A stretch of DNA of 54,840 bases from Lachnospiraceae bacterium (GCA_024695605.1 JAILHW010000151.1:1-54840), one strand, 5' to 3'. Counted from the first letter of the stretch, positions 16,995 through 47,500 are shown. Program-made: numbers and translations. Notes: a model not told the origin generated them from the letters alone.

Positions 16995-17241
16995 AAAAAA
17001 AGCCGCCTCCTTTTCGCACTTTTTAGTTTCAAGTACGACAAGTGGTGACTGTACACTCTCCCGTGTGTGTCCTAAAAACTCACACGTCGTTTCTGCTCGC
17101 AGCAGACAGTTCGCTTTCGCTGATTCGTACAGTAACTTGTCGTCAGTTTCTTCCTGACATTCGCTCCACGGAAAACCCGAAAAGGCTTTCGCCAGTCCGG
17201 CAACCTCTCGCTTCATAGCTATCAATGTCACAGCACTTGCC

Positions 17242-29504: not shown

Positions 29505-32500
29505 ATGAAAGAATACAAGTTCCTGGAAATTGAAAACCTGCAACTCCCCGAAAGCAGACGTGTACAAAGAAGCCGAATGCGTAGCATCCTGGATGCAATC
29601 GCATGCATGGTTTCGGAGTACGCCGTAGGCTGTCTTGGATTTGATGCTTCGGATGAAACATTATATCCCTTCATCCGCAAATACTTCATGGGTGAATGCG
29701 AAACCAAGGAACTTCTCAAGCGTCTTATTTCCAACTTTGAGATCGAGGAAATGTTCTCTTTTCTCCCGGGACTTGAGATTTCCTTCGATGATCCCTGCTG
29801 GAAGGATGCCCTGGAAAAAATCACGGTTCGTTCAGACGCTGAAAACACCTTTTCTATGGGTGAAAAACAGTTCTCCTGCAAAAAACTCTTTTTCCATATT
29901 GCGGTATTTGAAGGCAAGCCTCGAGCTCAACGTTATTTCGCAGAGCCCGGCACCGATGAGCCCGTGTTTGCAGATCTTGAAGATGACAGTATCACCACGG
30001 TGATCAACCGACCTTATCGATTCACTGATCTTTCCGTCTCCCCAAAAGAGGATGAAACCTTTCAGATCGAGGATGAAGCCTTTTTTGACATTGAAGAGAT
30101 CAAATCCTCCGATGAGGACCAGAGAAAAGCGATCCGTGCTTCTGTTGAACATAATCTCGTTGTTTTGGCCGGCGCAGGAAGCGGCAAAACCAGAACCCTG
30201 GTTTCCCGTCTTGCATACCTTCACCTGGTCAGAGGCATTCCTTTGTCAAAGATCGTGCTTCTGACTTTTACGACCTCCGCAGCTGAAGAGATGCGCCAGC
30301 GCGCAGAGCATCTGATTGCACAGATCTATCAGCTTAAGGGTGTTCAGCGCCAGCCCTATGTATATGCCAAAACCTTTGACGCCTTTTTCCGCAGGATTCT
30401 GCTTGACTATTTCGGCGAAATCGGATTCACCACACAGCCTGTTTTGGATCTTACAGCAAGCCGGGATAAAAAATGTTCTCTGCTAAAGGATGTCATTGAA
30501 GAATATCAGCTCCAAAGAGTTTTTTCCAATTACAGAACTGACGCTCAGGGCCTTGACACCCTGCTCACTCAGCTGGAGGCTTATGCAAGCGGCCTCACTG
30601 TTAACCAGCCGGGTCTTAATCGGCTTTTGGAACTGTTTCTAGATAAGCAGGTCAGCAAAAATCAAGTGCTGGGCTTTCAATATGTGAATCTTCTGGTCAA
30701 ACGGTCCCTCTATCAGGAGGACTCTCCCTTAAAGGCTGCACTGCTGATCCGCTATAACTGTTTTCTCATAGACGAGTTCCAGGACATCAGCAGTCTCCAA
30801 AACGAAACCATGCGTCCATTTTACAACACAAGTACGCATTTTACCTTCGTGGGAGATGACGATCAGTCTATTTATGCCTGGCGAGGCGCAGATGTTTCCA
30901 TCATCCGGGACATCGTCAATCAGGAAAACACCGATACGCAATATCTCCTGATCAACTACCGAAACAATCCGAACATCGTAAAGGCCGGAAACTGCATTTT
31001 ACGTCTGATCTCAAACCGAGCAAAGCATAAGGAGATCATTCCCTATAAGACCTCCGGCGCAAAGATCTGTGTCTCCACCAACGATCCGAAGTTTGTCAAT
31101 GTTGTTGATGAGATTGACAGACTGATCAAAAGCGGCATCGATCCAAAAGAGATCTCTGTACTTGCACGCAAAAGCAGGCAGGCAAAAGGAATCGAGGATG
31201 CTCTGCGGTCCATCGGCATTCCGGTAATCTCTAAAAAAGAGCCTCCAAAGCTGGATAGTTATTATTATCTCTTAAAAACTATGATCAACATCCATAGCGA
31301 ATATGATCTATATCATTCCTGCCAGTTGATCATGCGCTTTGCAAAGGAATCGGACTTTCCGGAAAAAACCATCAAGAAAATCATCAAAGGGGAGGAGCCT
31401 GCAAAAGGTAACCTCAATGTTTTGCAAAACATTGCAATGGATGCTTTTCGCCCCGGTGCTGACCAACTCTCTGTGATCGTCGAACGATTCGCGCAAAAAG
31501 CCGGAGAAGAATTCGCAGGATTGCCAAACGGCCGTATCGAGAGTGATGCCATTGATGCATTCATTGACTTTTTGAAAGACGGCGAGCTCCCCTGGCCCAT
31601 TACTCAAAAACGACTGGCCTCTGCCTATGCTGCTTTTGAGAATGTCAGAGACTTTAAAAATATGACCCGGAAAACAGAAAACGGCGTCAGTGTGAATACG
31701 ATCCATCAGGCCAAGGGACTCGAATACAATATTGTCATGATCGTAGGATTGGATCAGGGAGAATACCCGGATATCGGTATCATAGACAATGAATACAATA
31801 AAAAGATCCAGGAGCTGGAAAGCCTAAAGGCTGCCAGAGCAGAGTATTTTGAACTGAAAAAGACCATCACGGATGAGCAGATACAAACCCTTCTTAAGGA
31901 CTGCAATCATCCCTCCCTTTCGCCGGAAGAAACGGAAAGCCTTTCTCCTCTCAGATCAGTGATCGAAAAGAATCTGCGGGGATTGAAAAACCTGTCTGCA
32001 AATGCCATCGAGGATTATCTCGACGAATTTGACAACTGCATTGCTCCACTGGACAGGCGGTACCGCTTCGATCAGTCAAAGCTTACGCGGAAAATACTGG
32101 AACTGGAATCGCTTTTGGCTCAGAGAAATGAAGAGATTAAACTTTTAGATGAGGAAGAAACCGTAGCAGCTGAGGAAATGAAGTCAGAGATCCTACAGCT
32201 TGGCGAACAAATAAAGGAGGCTAAAACAACCCTCACCACCTTGCAACATCAGCATTCCCTGTTCAGATCATCCATCAGGAATCTGCAGAGTTTCCATACA
32301 AACGCATTTATTGCCGGAGGGCTTTTAACAGATATGAGCCGTGCGGAAGAGATTGGTGCCATCAAAAAACAACTGGAACAGGAACGAAAAGTAAAAATTG
32401 AAGAAGAACGGCGTACCTTCTACGTAGCTGTTACAAGGGCCCGGGATCAGCTTTATTTGTTCACCGATGAAGGCGCAACCGAATCCGAATTTGTTAAGGA

Positions 32501-33266
32501 AATCTCCGATGATCTGAAGACGGAGTTCCTTGTTATGACTAAAAATGCAAGAGCCGAACTCGAACGCATGGCAGGTGGACTCCGCAAAGAATTTGAAAAA
32601 GAGACCATCGATGATGACAGCATCGATGGCAAGATTCACAGTATCATAGACGATTCACAGTTTAAAGTAACCATCGATGAGCGTTTCAACGAATACCTGA
32701 AACAACATCCTGAATACGCTTCACTTCCGGCACCGGCGATGCGGTATTTCAAGCAGGGAATGAACCTTCTTTTTGTTGGTGAAATGACCGGAATGCTCTT
32801 TGTTACGGAATTTTCCCATAATATGCAGAGGGCCGCGGAACAGATCTTAAAAAGTGCGGCCGGAAAAAACGCCATCCCTTTTGAAACAAAAGATCGCCAG
32901 ATGCAAAAACTGATCATCGATAAGATCCGGAAGGAAACCCGGTCTCTGAATGCACAGACACCATCGCGGCACTTTATTGAAGAGATCATCTCCTCAGAAG
33001 CCGAAGGTTCTCGGATGGATTCTTTGAAAAAAGCAGCAATTCAGCATTATATCGTGCGTTCTCATCTATTCAAGGTCAAGAAGGAAATCTATCCAACCTG
33101 GGCCTGCCAGCGAATTAACATTCAGCCGAAACAGTTTTTAAAGGCGGCACTGGATCTGTCCAATATGCGAAATGTGCTGGTGCACCAAAATGAAGATTCC
33201 TGGCCGGAGGATCCCATAACGGAAATGCTTTTAGACCTTCGTACCATTGCCGAGGCCGGCTTTTGA
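29505..33266 (+). CDS. UvrD/Rep-family SF1 helicase with an unknown N-terminal domain, a coiled-coil insertion and a HEPN-like C-terminal region
   Basis: Helicase motifs are LAGAGSGKTRTL (Walker A), LIDEFQDIS, VGDDDQSIYAWRGA, NYRNNPNIV, TIHQAKGLEYNIV and YVAVTRARDQLYLF. The C-terminal MRNVLVHQ fits Rx4-6H. Confidence 0.85.
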   Translation: MKEYKFLEIENLQLPESRRVQRSRMRSILDAIACMVSEYAVGCLGFDASDETLYPFIRKYFMGECETKELLKRLISNFEIEEMFSFLPGLEISFDDPCWKDALEKITVRSDAENTFSMGEKQFSCKKLFFHIAVFEGKPRAQRYFAEPGTDEPVFADLEDDSITTVINRPYRFTDLSVSPKEDETFQIEDEAFFDIEEIKSSDEDQRKAIRASVEHNLVVLAGAGSGKTRTLVSRLAYLHLVRGIPLSKIVLLTFTTSAAEEMRQRAEHLIAQIYQLKGVQRQPYVYAKTFDAFFRRILLDYFGEIGFTTQPVLDLTASRDKKCSLLKDVIEEYQLQRVFSNYRTDAQGLDTLLTQLEAYASGLTVNQPGLNRLLELFLDKQVSKNQVLGFQYVNLLVKRSLYQEDSPLKAALLIRYNCFLIDEFQDISSLQNETMRPFYNTSTHFTFVGDDDQSIYAWRGADVSIIRDIVNQENTDTQYLLINYRNNPNIVKAGNCILRLISNRAKHKEIIPYKTSGAKICVSTNDPKFVNVVDEIDRLIKSGIDPKEISVLARKSRQAKGIEDALRSIGIPVISKKEPPKLDSYYYLLKTMINIHSEYDLYHSCQLIMRFAKESDFPEKTIKKIIKGEEPAKGNLNVLQNIAMDAFRPGADQLSVIVERFAQKAGEEFAGLPNGRIESDAIDAFIDFLKDGELPWPITQKRLASAYAAFENVRDFKNMTRKTENGVSVNTIHQAKGLEYNIVMIVGLDQGEYPDIGIIDNEYNKKIQELESLKAARAEYFELKKTITDEQIQTLLKDCNHPSLSPEETESLSPLRSVIEKNLRGLKNLSANAIEDYLDEFDNCIAPLDRRYRFDQSKLTRKILELESLLAQRNEEIKLLDEEETVAAEEMKSEILQLGEQIKEAKTTLTTLQHQHSLFRSSIRNLQSFHTNAFIAGGLLTDMSRAEEIGAIKKQLEQERKVKIEEERRTFYVAVTRARDQLYLFTDEGATESEFVKEISDDLKTEFLVMTKNARAELERMAGGLRKEFEKETIDDDSIDGKIHSIIDDSQFKVTIDERFNEYLKQHPEYASLPAPAMRYFKQGMNLLFVGEMTGMLFVTEFSHNMQRAAEQILKSAAGKNAIPFETKDRQMQKLIIDKIRKETRSLNAQTPSRHFIEEIISSEAEGSRMDSLKKAAIQHYIVRSHLFKVKKEIYPTWACQRINIQPKQFLKAALDLSNMRNVLVHQNEDSWPEDPITEMLLDLRTIAEAGF

Positions 33267-36784: not shown

Positions 36785-36822
36785 CGCTCTAAAGAGTGCA
36801 AGCTCCGTCCCGGGGGGCCATT
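36785..36822. repeat. Direct repeat copy B (overlaps the last 11 codons and the stop of the CPBP gene)
   Basis: See copy A. In this copy it encodes ...MAPRDGACTL-stop. Confidence 0.85.
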
Positions 36823-37745
36823 TTGATGATCAGTAAAAGCAGGGCTGCCACGAGTGCTGTAGCGATCAGCATGCCGGACCACATAGAGGAGATGATTGTA
36901 TCCGCTGCCTTATCAGGGTTGATGAATCCCTGCAGGATCGCCGGATGCGCATTGCTAATGGCATGCATGAAAACCGCCGGCCAGACAGAGCCGCTCTTTT
37001 CTGTCAGAACGGTAAGCATCATGCCCACAAGGGTGCAGAAGATGCACATTTTGAGTATACCTACATAAGGGAAGCCCGGATAGTCTGTTCCGAAATTATG
37101 GCCGATGCAGGTCAGCGGTGCATGCCACAGCCCCCAGATGATCCCACCGGTGATCAGTGCTGGCACGCGGCCCATGACCGAAAAGAGCTTTGGCATCATA
37201 TACCCCCGCCATCCGCCTTCTTCCCCGAAAGCGCCAAAGGATCCGATGGTACCGCTGACAAGAGCACTTACCGGCAGCAAAAACAGAATTCTGCGGTCAA
37301 CATCCAGAATCTGATAGTAGGTCGGATCGTAGGTTTCCGGCCTTAGCAGCAGCCCGATCACGTTTCCCAGTTCCGTGTAAGCCCAGGGCAAAATGAAAGC
37401 CAGCAGATACCAGATCCATCTCCGGTCTCTAAATACGATGCCCAGCATCATGGAACCCTTCCCTGTCATGGCAAAGCCTTCCTTTGTGATCAGCCTCGTA
37501 AGGATATGGGCGATCAGCGGACACATCATACCAAGGGCCACAAGGCTCTGCTTTTCGTTGGACATATCTTCCCAGGTCTCACCGCTTCCGATGGTCAGCA
37601 AAAACCAAAGCCAGGCCAGAAAAAAGCTCAGCACCAGATAGATTGCAAGACGCTTTCCTTCTGTTTTTTTATCTATCGTCGTATCTATAGTTGTATCTTT
37701 CTTTTGATCTGCATTTTGTGTCATCATAGTATCCCTCCGGCTCAC
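36789..37745 (-). CDS. CPBP-family intramembrane glutamic endopeptidase (CAAX protease/Abi family)
   Basis: Motifs FGEEGGWRGY (EExxxR), GLWHAPL and FMHAISN; about 8 TM helices. Confidence 0.85.
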   Translation of the reverse strand: MSRRDTMMTQNADQKKDTTIDTTIDKKTEGKRLAIYLVLSFFLAWLWFLLTIGSGETWEDMSNEKQSLVALGMMCPLIAHILTRLITKEGFAMTGKGSMMLGIVFRDRRWIWYLLAFILPWAYTELGNVIGLLLRPETYDPTYYQILDVDRRILFLLPVSALVSGTIGSFGAFGEEGGWRGYMMPKLFSVMGRVPALITGGIIWGLWHAPLTCIGHNFGTDYPGFPYVGILKMCIFCTLVGMMLTVLTEKSGSVWPAVFMHAISNAHPAILQGFINPDKAADTIISSMWSGMLIATALVAALLLLIIKMAPRDGACTL

Positions 37746-37805
37746 CCATACTCCCTTGTTAACATACCCACCGGTTCATTCGTAAAGTCAAAACTGCCTC
37801 TGTCT

Positions 37806-38564
37806 TTACTCATGATAGAATCTCACGGCAATCCTGTAAGACAGATAGTACAGTCCCAGCGTAACCGGCGGCGTCAGCAGAGAAACCAAAAACACTTCAA
37901 ACGTATGCGTATTCATCCAGGTCTTTATGATACCGAAATCAAAACGCGAAAAGACATTTAAATCTCCGAACAGAAGATAGGCGATCGCGCTAAGCCCGAT
38001 GCATAATGCCACGCCATCCTTGATGACCTTTGCGATGTCTCTCCCCAGCACTAAAAACAGTGGCAGTTCAATCGACAGGATCACCATGACAGTTCCCAGA
38101 AACGGTAGTGCAATACCGGAAAACAAATAGGAAAAATCCAATACAAGACCTTCCTCCATAAATCCACATGCTACGATATGCCAGATTTCATAAAGAGAGA
38201 AAAATACATACAGCAAAATCCCGCAAAAGACATACTTCGATGCCACAAACGTTTTTTTCGAGATCGGCAGGGCTGACAGATAATGCCCGGTTTGATTCTT
38301 TGCATCGCACTGCAGGATCTTCGCGGAAAACGTAAGACTGAACAATCCGCCAAGCCAGAGCAGCATCACTTCCCCTTGCCATAAAAGCATATCGATAAAG
38401 GTAAACACATCTCCGTCATCGTTGACTACCCGCAGATTCGGATATGCCGCTGTATTCGAAAACAGAAACCGCAGCAATACAAATATGCCCGTCAGGATAG
38501 CAAAGGTCGTCACCAGTCGTTTCCCCTTGATCGCAATAAAATCTTTATACAACAGTCCACCCAT
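37806..38564 (-). CDS. ABC-2 type transporter permease
   Basis: 252 aa and 6 TM. The N-terminus MGGLLYKDFIAIKGKR is typical of ABC-2 permeases, and the gene adjoins the ATPase operon. Confidence 0.7.
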   Translation of the reverse strand: MGGLLYKDFIAIKGKRLVTTFAILTGIFVLLRFLFSNTAAYPNLRVVNDDGDVFTFIDMLLWQGEVMLLWLGGLFSLTFSAKILQCDAKNQTGHYLSALPISKKTFVASKYVFCGILLYVFFSLYEIWHIVACGFMEEGLVLDFSYLFSGIALPFLGTVMVILSIELPLFLVLGRDIAKVIKDGVALCIGLSAIAYLLFGDLNVFSRFDFGIIKTWMNTHTFEVFLVSLLTPPVTLGLYYLSYRIAVRFYHE

Positions 38565-39352
38565 CAGATCACACCCCGCTTTCTTACTGCAGCCTTCAGT
38601 GAAATACTGTAGGATACAATACTCAACGCCGCCGCGATCAGCACCAGGATCCAGGATTTTTCCTTGATAAAATCCAGTGGTCTCCAGAAAACTGCCATAT
38701 CAAAAGCGCCGGTTTGATCCGTCATGATGCTCTGTATCAGGCTGCGGAAGTACCCGAGATTGCAAAGGATCAGGGTGATCGCCATCAGGAGCAGGGAAAA
38801 GATCTGCGCATAGGCCTGACTGCCATATCCCAAAAGGATACAAAAAAAGATGACCAGCGCACTGTAAATGCTCATGACAGAGGCTGCCGACAATATGATC
38901 CCCAGAAAATCCCGAAAGCGGATCAGGTCGGTCAGCAGGGAAAGGATGCCTGCAAGTGTGACATCCAGCAACGTACCGATCCCAAATAAGGCATAGATTG
39001 TCAGAAATTTTGCCAAAAGCCGCTTGCTGATGGGCAGGGGCAGTGCGCCGGCGATCCGGTAAAATCCTGCTTTCCCATCCGCCTGAAAAACATTTGCCAT
39101 ATCGCCAACCGTTGCGATGGGAAGCAGCATGAAAAGCACCAATGCCACCGATGCAAGATTATTTACATCAATATCCGATGCCTGCTCTGCCCGCAGCATT
39201 TCCTGCCCGGCCATGGCAAGATTTCCATAGCGGGCGCTGAGCACGAACAGGATAGAAGTGAACACAACACCGATCATCACAAAGACAAAGACCTGAAGCT
39301 GATGCTTTAAACACATGATATCCTTTAGGATCAAACCCTTCATACCACTCAC
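38564..39352 (-). CDS. ABC-2 type transporter permease
   Basis: 262 aa and 6 TM; N-terminus MKGLILKDIMCLKHQ. Its stop overlaps the next gene's start by 1 nt. Confidence 0.7.
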   Translation of the reverse strand: MSGMKGLILKDIMCLKHQLQVFVFVMIGVVFTSILFVLSARYGNLAMAGQEMLRAEQASDIDVNNLASVALVLFMLLPIATVGDMANVFQADGKAGFYRIAGALPLPISKRLLAKFLTIYALFGIGTLLDVTLAGILSLLTDLIRFRDFLGIILSAASVMSIYSALVIFFCILLGYGSQAYAQIFSLLLMAITLILCNLGYFRSLIQSIMTDQTGAFDMAVFWRPLDFIKEKSWILVLIAAALSIVSYSISLKAAVRKRGVI

Positions 39353-39382
39353 CTCGAATTGATTTCGTAGTTTTTCTTCATC

Positions 39383-40246
39383 CTATTTTTTTCTGACATA
39401 ATACAGCATGATCTGCTCCAGAGAAGCCCTCTCACATACCATATCCGGGTAGAGCTTCGCAGCCGAGAACCGGTCATTTACCAGCACTTCACAGCCAAAA
39501 CTGCTTGTCTCGCTGCCTACTATAAGAGAAGTGCTGATCCCGGAAAGAGCTTCTTTTTTGCAGCGCAGGATCCCGTGTTTTTCCAGGATCTCATCCTTGT
39601 TGCCGGCAAGGACGATCCTGCCGCCGTCGATAAAGACCACCTCATCCGCAATCTTCTCCAGGTCGCTTGTGATATGGGAAGAAAGCAGGATCGTGTGATC
39701 CTCCTGCAGGACAAATTCCCGGAAGATATCGGTCATTTCGTTTCGCACGATGGGATCAAGGCCGCTGGTAGGCTCGTCCATGACAAGAAGCTTTGCATGA
39801 TGGGAGAGCGCAACAGCGATCTGCAGCTTCATCCGCATGCCCCGGGAAAAATCTCCGCATTTCTTCTTTGAAGGAAGGCTGAAGCGCTTCATATGATCGA
39901 AGAAAGCCGCCTCATCCCAATTTTTATAGATGTTTTTCATCATGATATTGATATCGTGGCCGGTCATGAATTCATGAAAACCCATTTCATCAAAGACCAC
40001 ACCGATGTCTTCCCGAAGGGCGGCGCTGTTCTGGTCGACGTTTTGGCCAAAGACGCGCACTTCTCCGCTGTCTCTGCCCACGATATCCAGGATCAGGTTG
40101 ATGGTCGTGGTCTTTCCGGCGCCGTTCTGTCCGATGAAGCCGCAGACAGATCCTTCCGGAACGGAAAAACTGACCCTGTCCAGCTTAAAATCGCCGAAGT
40201 CCTTTACAACATTTTCCAGTTCGATGACATTTTTGATCTCATCCAT
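39383..40246 (-). CDS. ABC transporter ATP-binding protein
   Basis: Walker A GQNGAGKTT, signature SRGMRMKL and Walker B LLVMDEPTSGLD. The start ATG overlaps the GntR stop (ATGGATGA). Confidence 0.9.
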   Translation of the reverse strand: MDEIKNVIELENVVKDFGDFKLDRVSFSVPEGSVCGFIGQNGAGKTTTINLILDIVGRDSGEVRVFGQNVDQNSAALREDIGVVFDEMGFHEFMTGHDINIMMKNIYKNWDEAAFFDHMKRFSLPSKKKCGDFSRGMRMKLQIAVALSHHAKLLVMDEPTSGLDPIVRNEMTDIFREFVLQEDHTILLSSHITSDLEKIADEVVFIDGGRIVLAGNKDEILEKHGILRCKKEALSGISTSLIVGSETSSFGCEVLVNDRFSAAKLYPDMVCERASLEQIMLYYVRKK

Positions 40247-40622
40247 TTTTCTTTTCCTCATAAATGATCGAAAGCATCTCCTGCATTTCGGAAAGGGATA
40301 CCTTACCCAGAATTGCCTTATCCGCTGCCTTTTCCAGGCATTCTTCAATGGCAAAGAGCATACTTTCCTTCATAAGATCGCTGTTGATGCCTTTGACAAA
40401 GCTCCCCTTCCCGACTACGGATTCGATAAACCCATCCCGTTCCAGGTCCTCATAGGCCCGCTTGGTTGTGATCACGCTGATCCGAAGCTCCTTCGCCAAA
40501 AGGCGCATCGACGGCAGGGCGTCCCCTGCTGCCAGATCTCCGCTTAAGATCATACTCTTGATCTGCTCCTCAATCTGCTCATAAATGGGCACACCGGAAG
40601 CGTTGCTGATGATGATGTCCAT
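40239..40622 (-). CDS. GntR-family (YtrA-like) transcriptional regulator
   Basis: PSMRLLAKELRISVITTKRAYEDLERDGFI wHTH and a short C-terminal domain. Start at MDIIISN has a GGAG SD. The ORF-track start at 40670 lies inside the promoter. Confidence 0.85.
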   Translation of the reverse strand: MDIIISNASGVPIYEQIEEQIKSMILSGDLAAGDALPSMRLLAKELRISVITTKRAYEDLERDGFIESVVGKGSFVKGINSDLMKESMLFAIEECLEKAADKAILGKVSLSEMQEMLSIIYEEKKNG

Positions 40623-44531: not shown

Positions 44532-47500
44532 TCAGGGTTCTCCCGTATTGATCAGAGCATCTGCCCAAACACTGTTTTTATTCGTATAGTCACTGCTTCT
44601 GTTCAGAGCAGCTGCGTAATAATACTTCATTCCCTCGGCTGTCATAAGACGGATGATACCCTCCTCTCTGCTCTTGCCCTGAGCCACCTCTGCAGTAACC
44701 GGCAGCCAGAATCGCAGATGATCCTCATAATTGCTGGTATCAAGATTTGTCTCAGCTATCCAGGCAGCTACATGGAATTCCCTGTACTGCGTCAGATCAA
44801 TGCCAAGCTGCTCCACATTGATATCCAGAGAGATATCTTTTGTTTTGCTATTAGTCGTCTGGAATGAATACTCATCCTGCAGATTGAGACAGAAGCTGAC
44901 GGGATAGCCGTCTGAGGCATCATCTCTTGGATATGCATACACCTCTACCATAGGATACACCGGAACCACCTGTCCCTTACCGGAGCCGTGGTAGCCTATC
45001 TGTCCGCTAAAGCTTATGGTATTTCCGGAAACGGTTGCCTCTGTCTGGGTGATATTGTCAATATTTACCCTGAAATCTCCGTCATGGAAATTCTGCCAGA
45101 GCCAGATAGAATTCTCCGTCAATGTGCAGATCTCCGAATCCGGCAGAAGCTCGGATACAGCCTGCGCCGTGACAGGTTTTACATCTCTATTTCCATCTCT
45201 GTTGACGGCAACGGCATACGGCATCACCTGATCTGCCAGCGAGGTATCATTCGTGTCTATTTCAAAGCTACTGCTTCCGACTTTGAGCTTTATGATAGCA
45301 TCGGTTCCCACATAGGCCTCGGGATTTTTCAGCCGCACATACCACTTCGGACTACTACTCATCTGCAGGCAGATATATTCAATCTTAGGTGTCGCAAGCT
45401 GCTCTCTGACCTTAAGAAGTATGGGCTTACTGTAATAGGAATCGCCCCAAAGCTTATGATCCTTCACTCTGGCAACAACATAGTATTCATAGTTGACAAA
45501 ATCAAATCTGACTCCGTCCGGTTCTCTGGCAATATAGTTATGCCCGGTAACCTCATGTATTTCCGTCTGTCTTTCCACATCACACATCTGTATGGAATCC
45601 ACCGTGTAGCTGACCGCATTCCCCGAAACGGTTCCGTCAGGCAGCACTGTGCTTTCCGGTTTTGGAGCCTTGTAATAGATCGTTTCCACATCAAAGCGCT
45701 CAGGCGTGCTTCCGTCGGGACCGGTCCACTCCGCCTGTGTCAGATCCTGTGTCTTAACGACACTGCCGTCTGCAAGTGTCTGCTCATATTCCGGATGATA
45801 GACGGAAAGTGTGTCCGCAAAGGTATCCTGATCCGATCTGGCCAGAACATAGTCCTTCAGATTGTTGCTTACAGTGTCCCAATAATGCGGATCCTGTAAG
45901 GGAGCGACAAAGTAATATTTGTCTTTCCCTGCTCCGTCCTGCATATCATCAGCGTCTCCGACCACATGGATATAACCGTTTTTGCGGGTAAAGCTTCCTC
46001 CTTCCATCCGCGAAAGGGCAGTCTCTTCATCCAACTCATAGTAATGCGCGATCATCATATCGCTGTACTCCGCATACTGTGCCCTGTAGCCCGAATACCA
46101 GGCACTGATCCTGAGGCTGGATATATCATATCCGCTAAGATCCAGATCGGGTATGCTGATATCTGCTGTGTGCATAAGATTCGCGTTACCGTCGTTTACC
46201 AGCTCAAGATCATCACTTAAATACAGGGTCTTTTCGGTTCCGTCTGTATCCTTTGCGCTGACCTCGATCCTGTAATAATGCTGCAGCCAGCCTGTTCTGC
46301 TGCCGTCAGCAATGGCTATGGAGTCACCCTTTGTGGTATAACGCAGCCGGCCGCTGAAATGAAGCACGCGATCCTCATCTATATAGCATCCGTTTTCCCG
46401 GGCCGCAAAGCTTTGCAGATTGATCTTGACCTTCCCATTACCGCTATAGTTCTCAGGCAAATACAGCTTTCCCTTTTCGCCATCCTTCTTCGGTGTAACG
46501 ATCACCACTCCCGAAGGACTGTAATCGGTACCGTAAGCCTTGGCCAAAATGCCGTTGCCAAGATCAGCGCCGCGCCGGTTGTAATATGCTTTTCCGTCCA
46601 AAACGGAGGTATCTACTTCGATATTGTCATTCGTATTTCCCTGCGGCTTGTTATTGAAGTACAGACCGATCTTAACCCCTGTTGTATCCTCATAATCCTC
46701 CATATTAAGGAGTCTGAAGCTGTAGGTCGGGGTGTCTCGGTTTAAGGCCGCCACTTCCAGGATCGGCGCAGGAAGTACCGATCTGTGATACAGATAAAGC
46801 GGTGCCTGACTGCTCTGGGCAGAGTCATTGTCCAGTGTGCCCACAGCTGTCCTGTCCGTAATGTACCCGGACACTCTCTTTTTGCCGGCTGCCTGCGCCT
46901 TATCCACCTCGAAGTAATAATTGACAGGACCCTGGCCGGTGGAGGCATGCCAGCATTCCACCTTGAAGTCCCCGTAATCCGACAGTGCAATATCGGAGGG
47001 AACATCATAGTAACCGATATTGATCGTTTCCGACTGTCCGGCACTTAAGGAATACTCTCTTTCCGCAACGGTTTCCCAATGCCCCTTTCTTTTTGCATCG
47101 CTGCCGACATACCTGCCGTACAGCTCCAGTCTGAATACCTGGGGCTTTCGATCCTCCGTGGCTTTGTAGGTAAGGATAGCACTGTACTCCGGTCTTAAGG
47201 GTTGATCCAGCCCGTTGTCAGCCTCCGAAATGTTCATTTCGGCTCCGCCGGGCTCCAGATTCGATGGGATATAAACAGTTGTCGCAAACTCATCCGCAGC
47301 CAGAATATCCTTTTTCTCCTCCGGATCGTCTCCCTCTGATCCGGATACAGGCTCTGCAAAGCCGTAAACCTCTTTGTCACAGACATTCCTGGGGATATTG
47401 CCGGTGTAGTAAGAAAGCTTCTCCTCAGAATAATCCCGGTCAAAGTCGATCAGATAACGGGTATTGTTGTTTGCAAAGCGCACCCCTACCTCAAAGTCAT

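Follow-up and report, generated by a model that had tools for sequence, protein, structure and literature searches.

What is the role of a UvrD-type helicase that carries three additional domains and is encoded directly downstream of a lanthipeptide synthetase gene? This question is raised by a 54,840-nucleotide stretch of DNA from Lachnospiraceae bacterium (GCA_024695605.1, JAILHW010000151.1:1-54840), which was analysed as a whole and is referred to below as the window. An earlier sequence-only reading had described the helicase gene at 29505–33266 and taken its product for a sensor-effector protein rather than a repair helicase. The protein belongs to a rare and uncharacterised family. The explanation that we consider best, and to which we give about an even chance, is a helicase sensor fused to a HEPN-like, RNase-type effector, in a PcrA-derived family engaged in anti-phage or anti-plasmid conflict. 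Helicase-plus-nuclease proteins recur in bacterial immunity (Gabija, Hachiman, Hhe); the present family would contribute a version that derives from PcrA and probably has an RNase as effector. The gene and the parts of its product are as follows (aa, amino acids; AF2, AlphaFold2; pLDDT, predicted local distance difference test):

29505..33266, + strand: helicase open reading frame (ORF) of 1253 codons and a stop codon, beginning with ATG; a GAGG ribosome-binding site precedes it at 9 nt, and 54 nt separate it from lanM
29505..30014, + strand: N-terminal domain, aa 1–170, a helical subdomain and a 7-strand beta meander (AF2 pLDDT 88.7)
30105..31784, + strand: superfamily 1A (SF1A) motor, motifs Q to V, aa 201–760 (motif positions, Pfam, family alignment)
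31785..32384, + strand: 200-aa insertion, aa 761–960, between motifs V and VI (length relative to PcrA; length kept in the family)
32055..32306, + strand: heptad-rich core of the insertion, aa 851–934 (no other part of the protein exceeds the heptad threshold)
32385..32489, + strand: motif VI segment, aa 961–995, EERRTFYVAVTRARDQLYL (motifs, Pfam, family alignment)
32490..32714, + strand: three predicted linker helices, aa 996–1070, from the motor to the C-terminal core (AF2 helices 14–32, 38–50 and 55–68 in model numbering, where protein residue = model residue + 999)
32715..33263, + strand: putative HEPN-like all-alpha core, aa 1071–1253 (AF2 pLDDT 90.8; conservation; layout as in PMC3710099; sub-threshold Pfam matches)
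33162..33185, + strand: putative catalytic motif N1220-M-R1222-N1223-V-L-V-H1227 at the C-terminal end of helix a3 (conservation in 39 homologues)

The motor is complete. Motifs Q, I, II, III, IV, V and VI are all present and vary little or not at all among 39 aligned homologues. They comprise Q206, AGAGSGKT (222–229), DEFQD (423–427), GDDDQSIYAWRG (450–461) and NYRN (484–487), and, on the C-terminal side, TIHQAKGLE (732–740) and YVAVTRA (973–979). The sequence-only reading had listed this SF1 motif set correctly, with the Walker A motif AGAGSGKTR (aa 222–230) at 30168–30194 and YVAVTRARD starting at aa 973 (position 32421). The Pfam domain UvrD-helicase was assigned to aa 204–470 (1.3e-43; 150.1 bits against a gathering score of 23), UvrD_C to aa 621–761 (93.9 bits against 25.6) and UvrD_C_2 to aa 966–985; no Pfam domain was assigned to aa 1–200, 762–960 or 990–1253. 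The scores reached with the NCBIfam equivalog models were about one fifth of the respective cut-offs: 193 of 911 bits (pcrA), 188 of 1144 bits (uvrD) and 148 of 951 bits (rep). The protein thus possesses a UvrD/PcrA-type motor without being the housekeeping enzyme, and a housekeeping PcrA role is ruled out by these scores. A bona fide PcrA–LigA pair is encoded separately from, and upstream of, one of the homologues.

The boundaries of the family are well defined. A search of 5.8 billion proteins yielded about 55 clusters with 96–100% query coverage, 26–69% identity and lengths of 1247–1565 aa. E-values within the family range from 0 to about 1e-76 and are followed by those of ordinary PcrA proteins at about 1e-40. 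Clustering at 50% identity leaves about 45 clusters. All three add-ons are conserved in about 45–55 homologue clusters and have near-constant lengths in the 39-member alignment, where the C-terminal region comprises at least 260 aa. Members have so far been found only in uncultured Bacillota from metagenomes, and the domains specific to the family are absent from PADLOC and Pfam.

The ancestry of the family is evident from its longer members. Sixteen homologues of 1334–1354 aa (P0007–P0016, P0019 and P0021–P0025) possess about 75 extra C-terminal residues, which match the Tudor domain of PcrA (hhalign 97%, E=1e-10), a domain that was not flagged by precomputed Pfam annotation. Since this domain is retained at the C-terminus, the family derives from PcrA. 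The HEPN-like module is placed between motor and Tudor domain in these proteins, while the window protein ends before the Tudor domain. The Tudor domain of PcrA/UvrD binds RNA polymerase. By analogy, its retention suggests transcription complexes as the site of action of many members, and it points to surveillance at the transcription/replication interface.

The C-terminal region holds the candidate effector. Its AF2 model is all-alpha, with ten helices, a pLDDT of 90.8 and a pTM of 0.88, and the region ends, as described in the sequence-only reading, with a genuine RNxxxH motif whose R1222 (33168–33170) and H1227 (33183–33185) lie where they had been placed. The proposed core is made up of helices a1 (1076–1095), a2 (1100–1119, with E1102, N1106, R1109 and E1112 as marked residues), a3 (1208–1227) and a4 (1237–1252), with a predicted three-helix insert at 1131–1185. 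HEPN domains are defined by the motif Rx4-6H with a polar residue (N/D/H) after R; in the published layout this motif terminates helix 3, just ahead of the loop that leads to helix 4, and helices 2 and 3 are separated by a large insert (PMC3710099). The sequence R1222-N1223-x3-H1227 agrees with this definition. In the model, the motif closes helix 1208–1227, a loop leads from there to the last helix, 1237–1252, and three extra helices occur between 1100–1119 and 1208–1227. As the penultimate helix ends with the motif and an insert lies between the candidate helices 2 and 3, the predicted fold would match the described HEPN layout.

Conservation singles out the same site. N-x-R-N-x3-H is the most conserved polar motif outside the motor: N1220, R1222 and N1223 are each retained in 36 of the 39 homologues and H1227 in 35, at a mean column identity of 29%, and we therefore regard the motif as more than a chance occurrence. 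From residue frequencies, one R-N-x3-H would be expected by chance in a protein of 1253 aa with an estimated probability of about 5%. Degeneration of the motif is confined to four homologues: P0052, P0056, P0057 and P0028 (H to Q). Both P0056 and P0057 have lost it and carry a fused C-terminal trypsin-like protease; P0052 has lost it without gaining a domain. Such decay in four lineages, two of them with a protease fusion, fits a dispensable effector site. Candidate acidic residues of helix 2 are E1102 (30/39) and E1112 (29/39). When the insert was removed, HEPN_RiboL-PSP was matched by two of 27 members (best E=0.043) and HEPN_Cthe2314 by one (E=0.047), all below threshold; HEPN_RiboL-PSP is the sole Pfam family matched by more than one member in this insert-less form. 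Three of 16 weak Pfam matches thus fall on HEPN models, for which we roughly estimate a chance probability of about 1e-6, taking some 30 HEPN models among 24,736; these matches are, however, driven by the motif itself. Taken with the model, this makes a HEPN-type RNase at the C-terminus somewhat probable. A HMMER profile of the C-terminal 254 aa retrieved 49 proteins from 1.84 billion representative proteins, each of which is a member of the family or a fragment of one, so that, as far as HMMER can see, the domain is restricted to this helicase family.

The second addition is the insertion between motifs V and VI. The distance from GLE (738–740) to EERR (967–970) is 226 aa in the window protein as compared to 26 aa in a PcrA, from which an insertion of about 200 aa is deduced. 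Its length in the 39 members is 191–230 aa, mostly 196–201 aa. The sequence-only reading had called the whole insertion a coiled coil. The insertion and its length are borne out, while the coiled coil fits only the central 85 or so residues: a heptad heuristic applied to the entire protein flagged aa 851–934 alone. This stretch, which also weakly matches Seryl_tRNA_N, the helical arm of seryl-tRNA synthetase (E=0.006), is likely to be a coiled-coil arm or hairpin. Aromatic and Cys positions are conserved in the flank at aa 761–850 and suggest a folded helical domain. With the heptads confined to aa 851–934 and the flanks conserved, the insertion is better called a helical domain bearing a coiled-coil arm.

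The third addition precedes the motor. Its AF2 model is confident, and helices at aa 22–104 are followed in it by a seven-strand beta meander at aa 106–166. A low-confidence linker begins at about aa 170 (pLDDT <50 at aa 177–187). The sequence-only reading had taken aa 1–210 as one domain; its accompanying statement that it resembles nothing recognisable holds, with zero matches in Pfam, PADLOC, PDB sequences or a Foldseek search of the model against PDB. In the family alignment, E38, Y39 and N114 are conserved in the domain and F193/F194 are invariant in the linker. The N-terminal region is 172–234 aa long in 37 of the 39 homologues; the remaining two have longer N-terminal extensions.

The mechanism that we propose combines these parts. 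The ATP-driven motor would track nucleic acid and could sense the DNA ends of an invader or intermediates of replication or transcription. The N-terminal domain and the coiled-coil arm of domain 2A may serve partner binding and/or self-association, by which the C-terminal HEPN-like domain would be controlled. HEPN RNases generally dimerise to form a composite site. Once activated, the N-x-R-N-x3-H site would cleave RNA and thereby cause growth arrest or abortive infection.

The genomic context of the homologues points to defence. About 14 distinct family neighbourhoods were examined, including the following arrangements:

P0002 (69% identity): 58-aa peptide, LanM, helicase and LlaJI restriction genes, beside a Tn916-type Xis/integrase
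P0030 (32% identity): small ORF, LanM, 102-aa HIRAN protein and helicase
P0021: HIRAN-Sel1 protein and helicase
P0040: HIRAN protein, 207-aa protein, helicase and radical SAM protein
P0017, P0022 and P0012: small peptide, Sel1-DEDDh exonuclease, helicase, 205-aa protein and 234–290-aa protein
P0005 and P0006: upstream gene without family match, helicase, small UvrD-like P-loop protein and radical SAM enzymes
P0046 and P0057: helicase-protease fusions with HIRAN neighbours
P0042: helicase adjoining McrBC, a CARF gene and an Hsp70-like gene
L008 11754–12371, L089 10030–10647, L097 1984–2598 and L098 10686–11543: stand-alone CARF genes of two CARF groups, adjoining helicase homologues

The 205-aa neighbour is a stand-alone CARF protein (PADLOC PDLC01820, 9e-45), as is the neighbour of P0042 a CARF protein (PDLC01866, 1e-35), and the upstream Sel1-RNase_T genes match the PADLOC profile of a cas-associated DEDDh exonuclease. 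No cyclase or Cas10 was seen at the CARF-containing loci. Genes for integrase/Xis, a type IV secretion system (T4SS) coupling protein, resolvase, LlaJI and McrBC adjoin homologues, and P0022 is located on an element with the T4SS coupling protein. A constant core with interchangeable partners, located in mobile DNA and defence islands, is the pattern of a conflict system, and the recurrent CARF neighbour provides indirect support for a HEPN-type effector. HIRAN is a DNA-3'-end-binding domain. The swappable partners (HIRAN, DEDDh, CARF, radical SAM, protease fusion) represent a natural experiment in which one motor is combined with varied inputs and outputs. LanM occurs in only three of the approximately 14 neighbourhoods and is replaced elsewhere by HIRAN, DEDDh, CARF, radical SAM or nothing; it is therefore an accessory module and not part of the core. 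Together with the low equivalog scores and the sharply bounded, rare family, the mobile-element and restriction neighbours and the HIRAN, DEDDh and CARF partners favour the original suggestion of a sensor-effector over a repair helicase.

Additional members were sought with a hand-built degenerate DNA pattern for DLxNxRNxLxH...WP, which was applied to IMG/VR and metagenomes. It revealed two true members in IMG/VR (on 'viral' contigs) and two more among 80 listed metagenome loci, out of 113 matching stretches. All four are copies of the P0022-type element and add no further neighbourhood type. A scan of genome contigs with the generic motifs [LI]AGAGSGKT and DEFQD returned ordinary UvrD/PcrA loci only.

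Several further features of these neighbourhoods were recorded. One Sel1-repeat segment (about 45% identity over 70–100 aa) is fused either to HIRAN (L001 7060–7983) or to DEDDh (L089 4843–5991, L097 3942–5108); judging from this similarity, it may be an adaptor that docks on the helicase. In the CARF-containing subtype, the Sel1-DEDDh gene is preceded by conserved short ORFs of 66–71 aa with basic C-terminal tails (L008 6437–6637, ...SYRRRKRF; L089 4406–4621, ...RRRNRKRL). The gene upstream of P0005 and P0006 (L096 1–1191 / L007 2–163) ends with ...CRVTAAHGRG..., which is Rx4H-like, and has no Pfam or PADLOC match. P0042 is encoded between a McrB (DUF8425/DUF8426)–McrC pair and the Hsp70-like gene (L098 1–3797 and 11635–13227), an arrangement that recalls CoCoNuT-type systems (PMC11090510).

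The window belongs to the lanthipeptide-linked neighbourhoods. The sequence-only reading had drawn no link between the helicase and the LanA/LanM genes upstream of it, which are listed here with a more distant gene set:

26436..26464, + strand: sigma-70-like promoter TTGACG-17-TATAAT with 11 of 12 positions matched, a candidate promoter for a three-gene operon whose small ORF begins 47 nt downstream
26511..26682, + strand: 56-aa LanA-like precursor peptide MNEELKYTLKNAQNSRERMQLLNSYREPLFDDALEDTYQGTDYNTGVCSDMPECGC, with 3 Cys and 3 Ser/Thr in the last 16 residues
26700..29450, + strand: class II LanM, 916 aa, with LCCGN zinc-ligand motif (TIGR03897, 477.8 bits against a cut-off of 304; Pfam DUF4135 and LANC_like)
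36789–40354, - strand: CPBP/Rce1-like intramembrane protease, two ABC-2 permeases and PmtA-like ABC ATPase, 3.5–7 kb from the lanthipeptide genes

The promoter at 26436 is the sole + strand site between 26200 and 33500, and the + strand terminator-like matches before the end of the helicase gene are weak and located inside lanM. The intergenic gaps are 17 nt (lanA–lanM) and 54 nt (lanM–helicase). The G+C content is 0.44–0.475 over 26–33 kb as compared to 0.50–0.54 in the adjacent segments, and the + strand operon is flanked by class II aldolase and HMGL-like genes on the minus strand; no flanking direct repeats or tRNA marking an insertion site were found around it. The best explanation for this arrangement is a horizontally acquired, lower-GC operon of lanA-like, LanM and helicase genes between housekeeping genes of a Clostridia chromosome.

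The LanA-like peptide ends with ...TDYNTGVCSDMPECGC. Its Cys- and Ser/Thr-rich core is encoded adjacent to LanM, as a class II cluster requires, while no GG/GA leader cleavage site is evident in the peptide. It is 71% identical, over the whole length, to the 58-aa ORF at the same position in the P0002 locus; the peptide is thus more conserved than LanM, which shares 48% identity between these two loci. No recognisable homologue of this LanA was found in the P0030-type locus. In LanM, K180, D251, H253, N256, D268, E270, H722, C782 and C833 are invariant relative to canonical LanMs, and the dehydratase and cyclase appear intact by these residues. The second zinc-ligand motif reads LCCGN and not LCHG; this 'CCG' type is that of ProcM-like enzymes, whose substrate specificity is relaxed. 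Among themselves, the three helicase-linked LanMs are related, with 48% and 37% identity to the window enzyme. A database search with LanM revealed seven clusters at >=29% identity, all of 754–938 aa and including the window's own LanM, while canonical LanMs, mostly of 1050–1110 aa, begin at <=27% identity. The enzyme belongs to a clade of short LanMs (about 905–925 aa), which do not possess N-terminal and internal segments of the canonical enzymes and whose nearest known relatives are helicase-linked. No LanT, LanP/protease, LanFEG or immunity genes were detected in the window operon or in the two homologous operons (P0002 and P0030). The distant CPBP protease and ABC-2/PmtA-like genes might constitute a set for peptide export/immunity; they are separated from the lanthipeptide unit by genes of the HMGL-like, LysR and metallophosphoesterase types.

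Comparison with known proteins and defence systems places the helicase within the UvrD/PcrA-like SF1A superfamily and outside Hhe, Gabija and the CARF-HEPN effectors. With PcrA, UvrD and Rep, it shares all motor motifs, the Pfam domains UvrD-helicase and UvrD_C and, in the longer members, the PcrA-type Tudor domain. In contrast to these enzymes, it has three added conserved domains of about 630 aa in total and is rare and linked to mobile elements, and the window protein has no Tudor domain. Closest in concept are Hhe, Gabija and the CARF-HEPN effectors. Hhe was reportedly described by Gao et al. in 2020 as a combination of HEPN, SF1 helicase and Vsr; it is a single-gene defence system with helicase and nuclease domains (PMC11482910), and SF-I helicase/HEPN/Vsr fusions have been described (PMC3710099). 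The likeness to Hhe consists in an SF1 helicase and a HEPN-type domain within one polypeptide and in a defence context. However, the window helicase is of the UvrD/PcrA type, has no Vsr or other DNase domain, carries its HEPN-like domain at the C-terminus and is accompanied by accessory genes; Hhe, in contrast, carries the annotation DUF4011 and has a length of about 1630 aa, as compared to 1253 aa here. Membership in Hhe was rejected: the protein contains no Vsr/DUF4011 or nuclease-fold Pfam domain, and no Hhe model was among the best 25 of 42 full-length PADLOC matches. Gabija likewise couples a UvrD-like motor to a nuclease effector, and the best PADLOC matches of the window helicase are to GajB, in the motor region only. 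In the present case, however, the effector is fused and HEPN-like, and no GajA-like ATPase-TOPRIM gene occurs nearby. Membership in Gabija was rejected as well, as GajA is missing and the neighbours (LanM, aldolase and HMGL-like enzyme) have no PADLOC matches.

The CARF-HEPN effectors of type III CRISPR (Csm6/Csx1) and the CARF-associated CoCoNuT systems (PMC11090510) resemble the family in the RNxxxH module, the coiled-coil elements and the CARF genes beside several homologues, and CoCoNuT also in the McrBC/Hsp70 cluster next to one of them. They differ in that here CARF is a separate gene, absent from the window, the helicase is of the UvrD type, the operon contains no McrB/McrC and no cyclase or Cas10 was seen. 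Lanthiphages are lanthipeptide clusters of class I that act against phages in Actinobacteria (bioRxiv 10.1101/2024.06.26.600839). The window shares with them an association of lanthipeptide genes with defence-type genes. Unlike lanthiphages, it is clostridial and encodes a LanM of class II; peptide and LanM make up a minimal unit that is co-operonic with a helicase/HEPN-like protein and includes no further tailoring or export genes.

A number of results weigh against a HEPN-bearing defence protein. The sequence-only reading had proposed the HEPN assignment and had named a lack of conserved R and H among homologues as one of the findings that would speak against it. Both residues are conserved and the predicted layout fits; the fold itself found no Foldseek or significant profile match. 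Foldseek searches with AlphaFold models, a check that had been suggested at the same time, returned nothing for either terminal region: for the C-terminal model, the best E-values against PDB and BFVD were 0.76–1.5, with no HEPN entry, in a method that is weak on embedded helical bundles. Hidden Markov model searches of PDB with three alignments of the C-terminal and N-terminal regions found nothing, and the untrimmed C-terminus matches no HEPN Pfam model. The Ex3[KR] signature of many HEPN families is not kept, as K/R at +4 is variable and only E1102 and E1112 are conserved, at about 75%. Neither terminal domain is covered by a PADLOC model; the insertion gave only marginal coiled-coil matches to LmuB/JetC (E about 0.007), and the full-length matches are generic GajB-type motor matches (best 9.8e-57). 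Searching with the C-terminus by tblastn revealed no member among PLSDB plasmids or INPHARED phages, and no classical mobile-element or defence gene adjoins the window locus.

These results bear on two other explanations. The tail of a conflict-system helicase may be a new, non-HEPN all-alpha fold, for example a DNase, a nucleotide-binding switch or a protein-targeting module, in which RNxxxH arose by convergence. This would account for the missing Foldseek match of a model with high pLDDT, for a profile search that reached no other family and for Pfam matches that stay below threshold. We consider it quite unlikely, because the HEPN description is matched by the form of the motif, by its placement where helix 3 ends, by the insert that separates helices 2 and 3 and by a candidate acidic residue in helix 2, the weak Pfam matches land on HEPN families and not on random ones, and CARF, a frequent partner of HEPN, recurs as a neighbour. 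Alternatively, the protein may be a specialised PcrA paralogue of DNA repair or transcription, with structural or regulatory add-ons and an NxRNxxxH motif that binds a ligand or partner instead of cleaving RNA. An intact UvrD/PcrA motor and the Tudor domain of the longer homologues agree with such a role; HIRAN and DEDDh partners are also found in repair contexts, HEPN-like domains without catalysis exist (PMC3710099), and the Foldseek searches gave no fold-level proof of HEPN. It is nevertheless an unlikely explanation for a family of patchy and rare distribution that is sited in integrative/conjugative elements and beside restriction systems, has CARF partners and protease fusions and coexists with a separate housekeeping PcrA. 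In addition, the HEPN-defining residues are conserved, and they have decayed in a few lineages in which the domain itself persists.

A third explanation is centred on the ribosomally synthesised and post-translationally modified peptide (RiPP): the modified peptide would stay in the cell and regulate the helicase or be its cofactor, or the helicase would regulate the peptide or protect against it. RiPP biology, and not defence by nucleic-acid sensing, would then be what the operon primarily serves. The single promoter and short gaps of the operon, the recurrence of the peptide–LanM–helicase triad at P0002 and P0030, the separate short LanM clade with helicase-linked nearest relatives, the intact LanM catalytic residues, the high conservation of LanA and the lack of LanT, LanP and LanFEG genes in all three operons speak for this function. 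We consider it improbable, given that only three of about 14 neighbourhoods contain a LanM, that the P0030-type locus has no recognisable LanA homologue and that the ABC-2 transporter and CPBP protease at 3.5–7 kb could serve a conventional secreted lanthipeptide. One version, which we likewise regard as improbable, is that the LanM-modified peptide is kept intracellular and is a dedicated regulator or cofactor of the helicase/HEPN-like effector, for example a lanthionine-stapled inhibitor ('antitoxin') or an activating ligand, or else that the helicase or proteins of an invader are the targets of LanM. In each case, a RiPP enzyme would be part of an immune effector inside the cell. Retention in the cell is proposed because none of the three operons contains export genes. 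The coupling of LanA/LanM to a helicase without export machinery is the least expected and least understood feature of the locus; if functional, it would take lanthipeptide chemistry beyond secreted antibiotics and into the intracellular control of an immune effector. Taken together, the analysis establishes the architecture of the protein, its intact motifs and their conservation, the limits of the family, the gene neighbourhoods and the descent from PcrA, while a function in defence, RNase activity, the way of activation and any part played by the lanthipeptide are inferred.

Other features of the window include the following:

17137–17224, - strand: ribosomal-protein leader of the S10-Clostridia type (Rfam RF03136, 71.8 bits), adjoining an operon of ribosomal protein genes
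44532–53735, - strand: 3067-aa ORF for a giant pilin-like protein, whose sole Pfam match is an N-terminal prepilin-type methylation motif
22940–25138, - strand: 732-aa protein flanking the island, with an ECF-transporter-like membrane N-terminus and a C-terminal HD_5/HD domain

The S10-Clostridia leader is the basis for placing the window chromosome in Clostridia. The small ORFs downstream of the 3067-aa ORF have no family matches. The 732-aa HD protein resembles an ordinary signalling phosphohydrolase.

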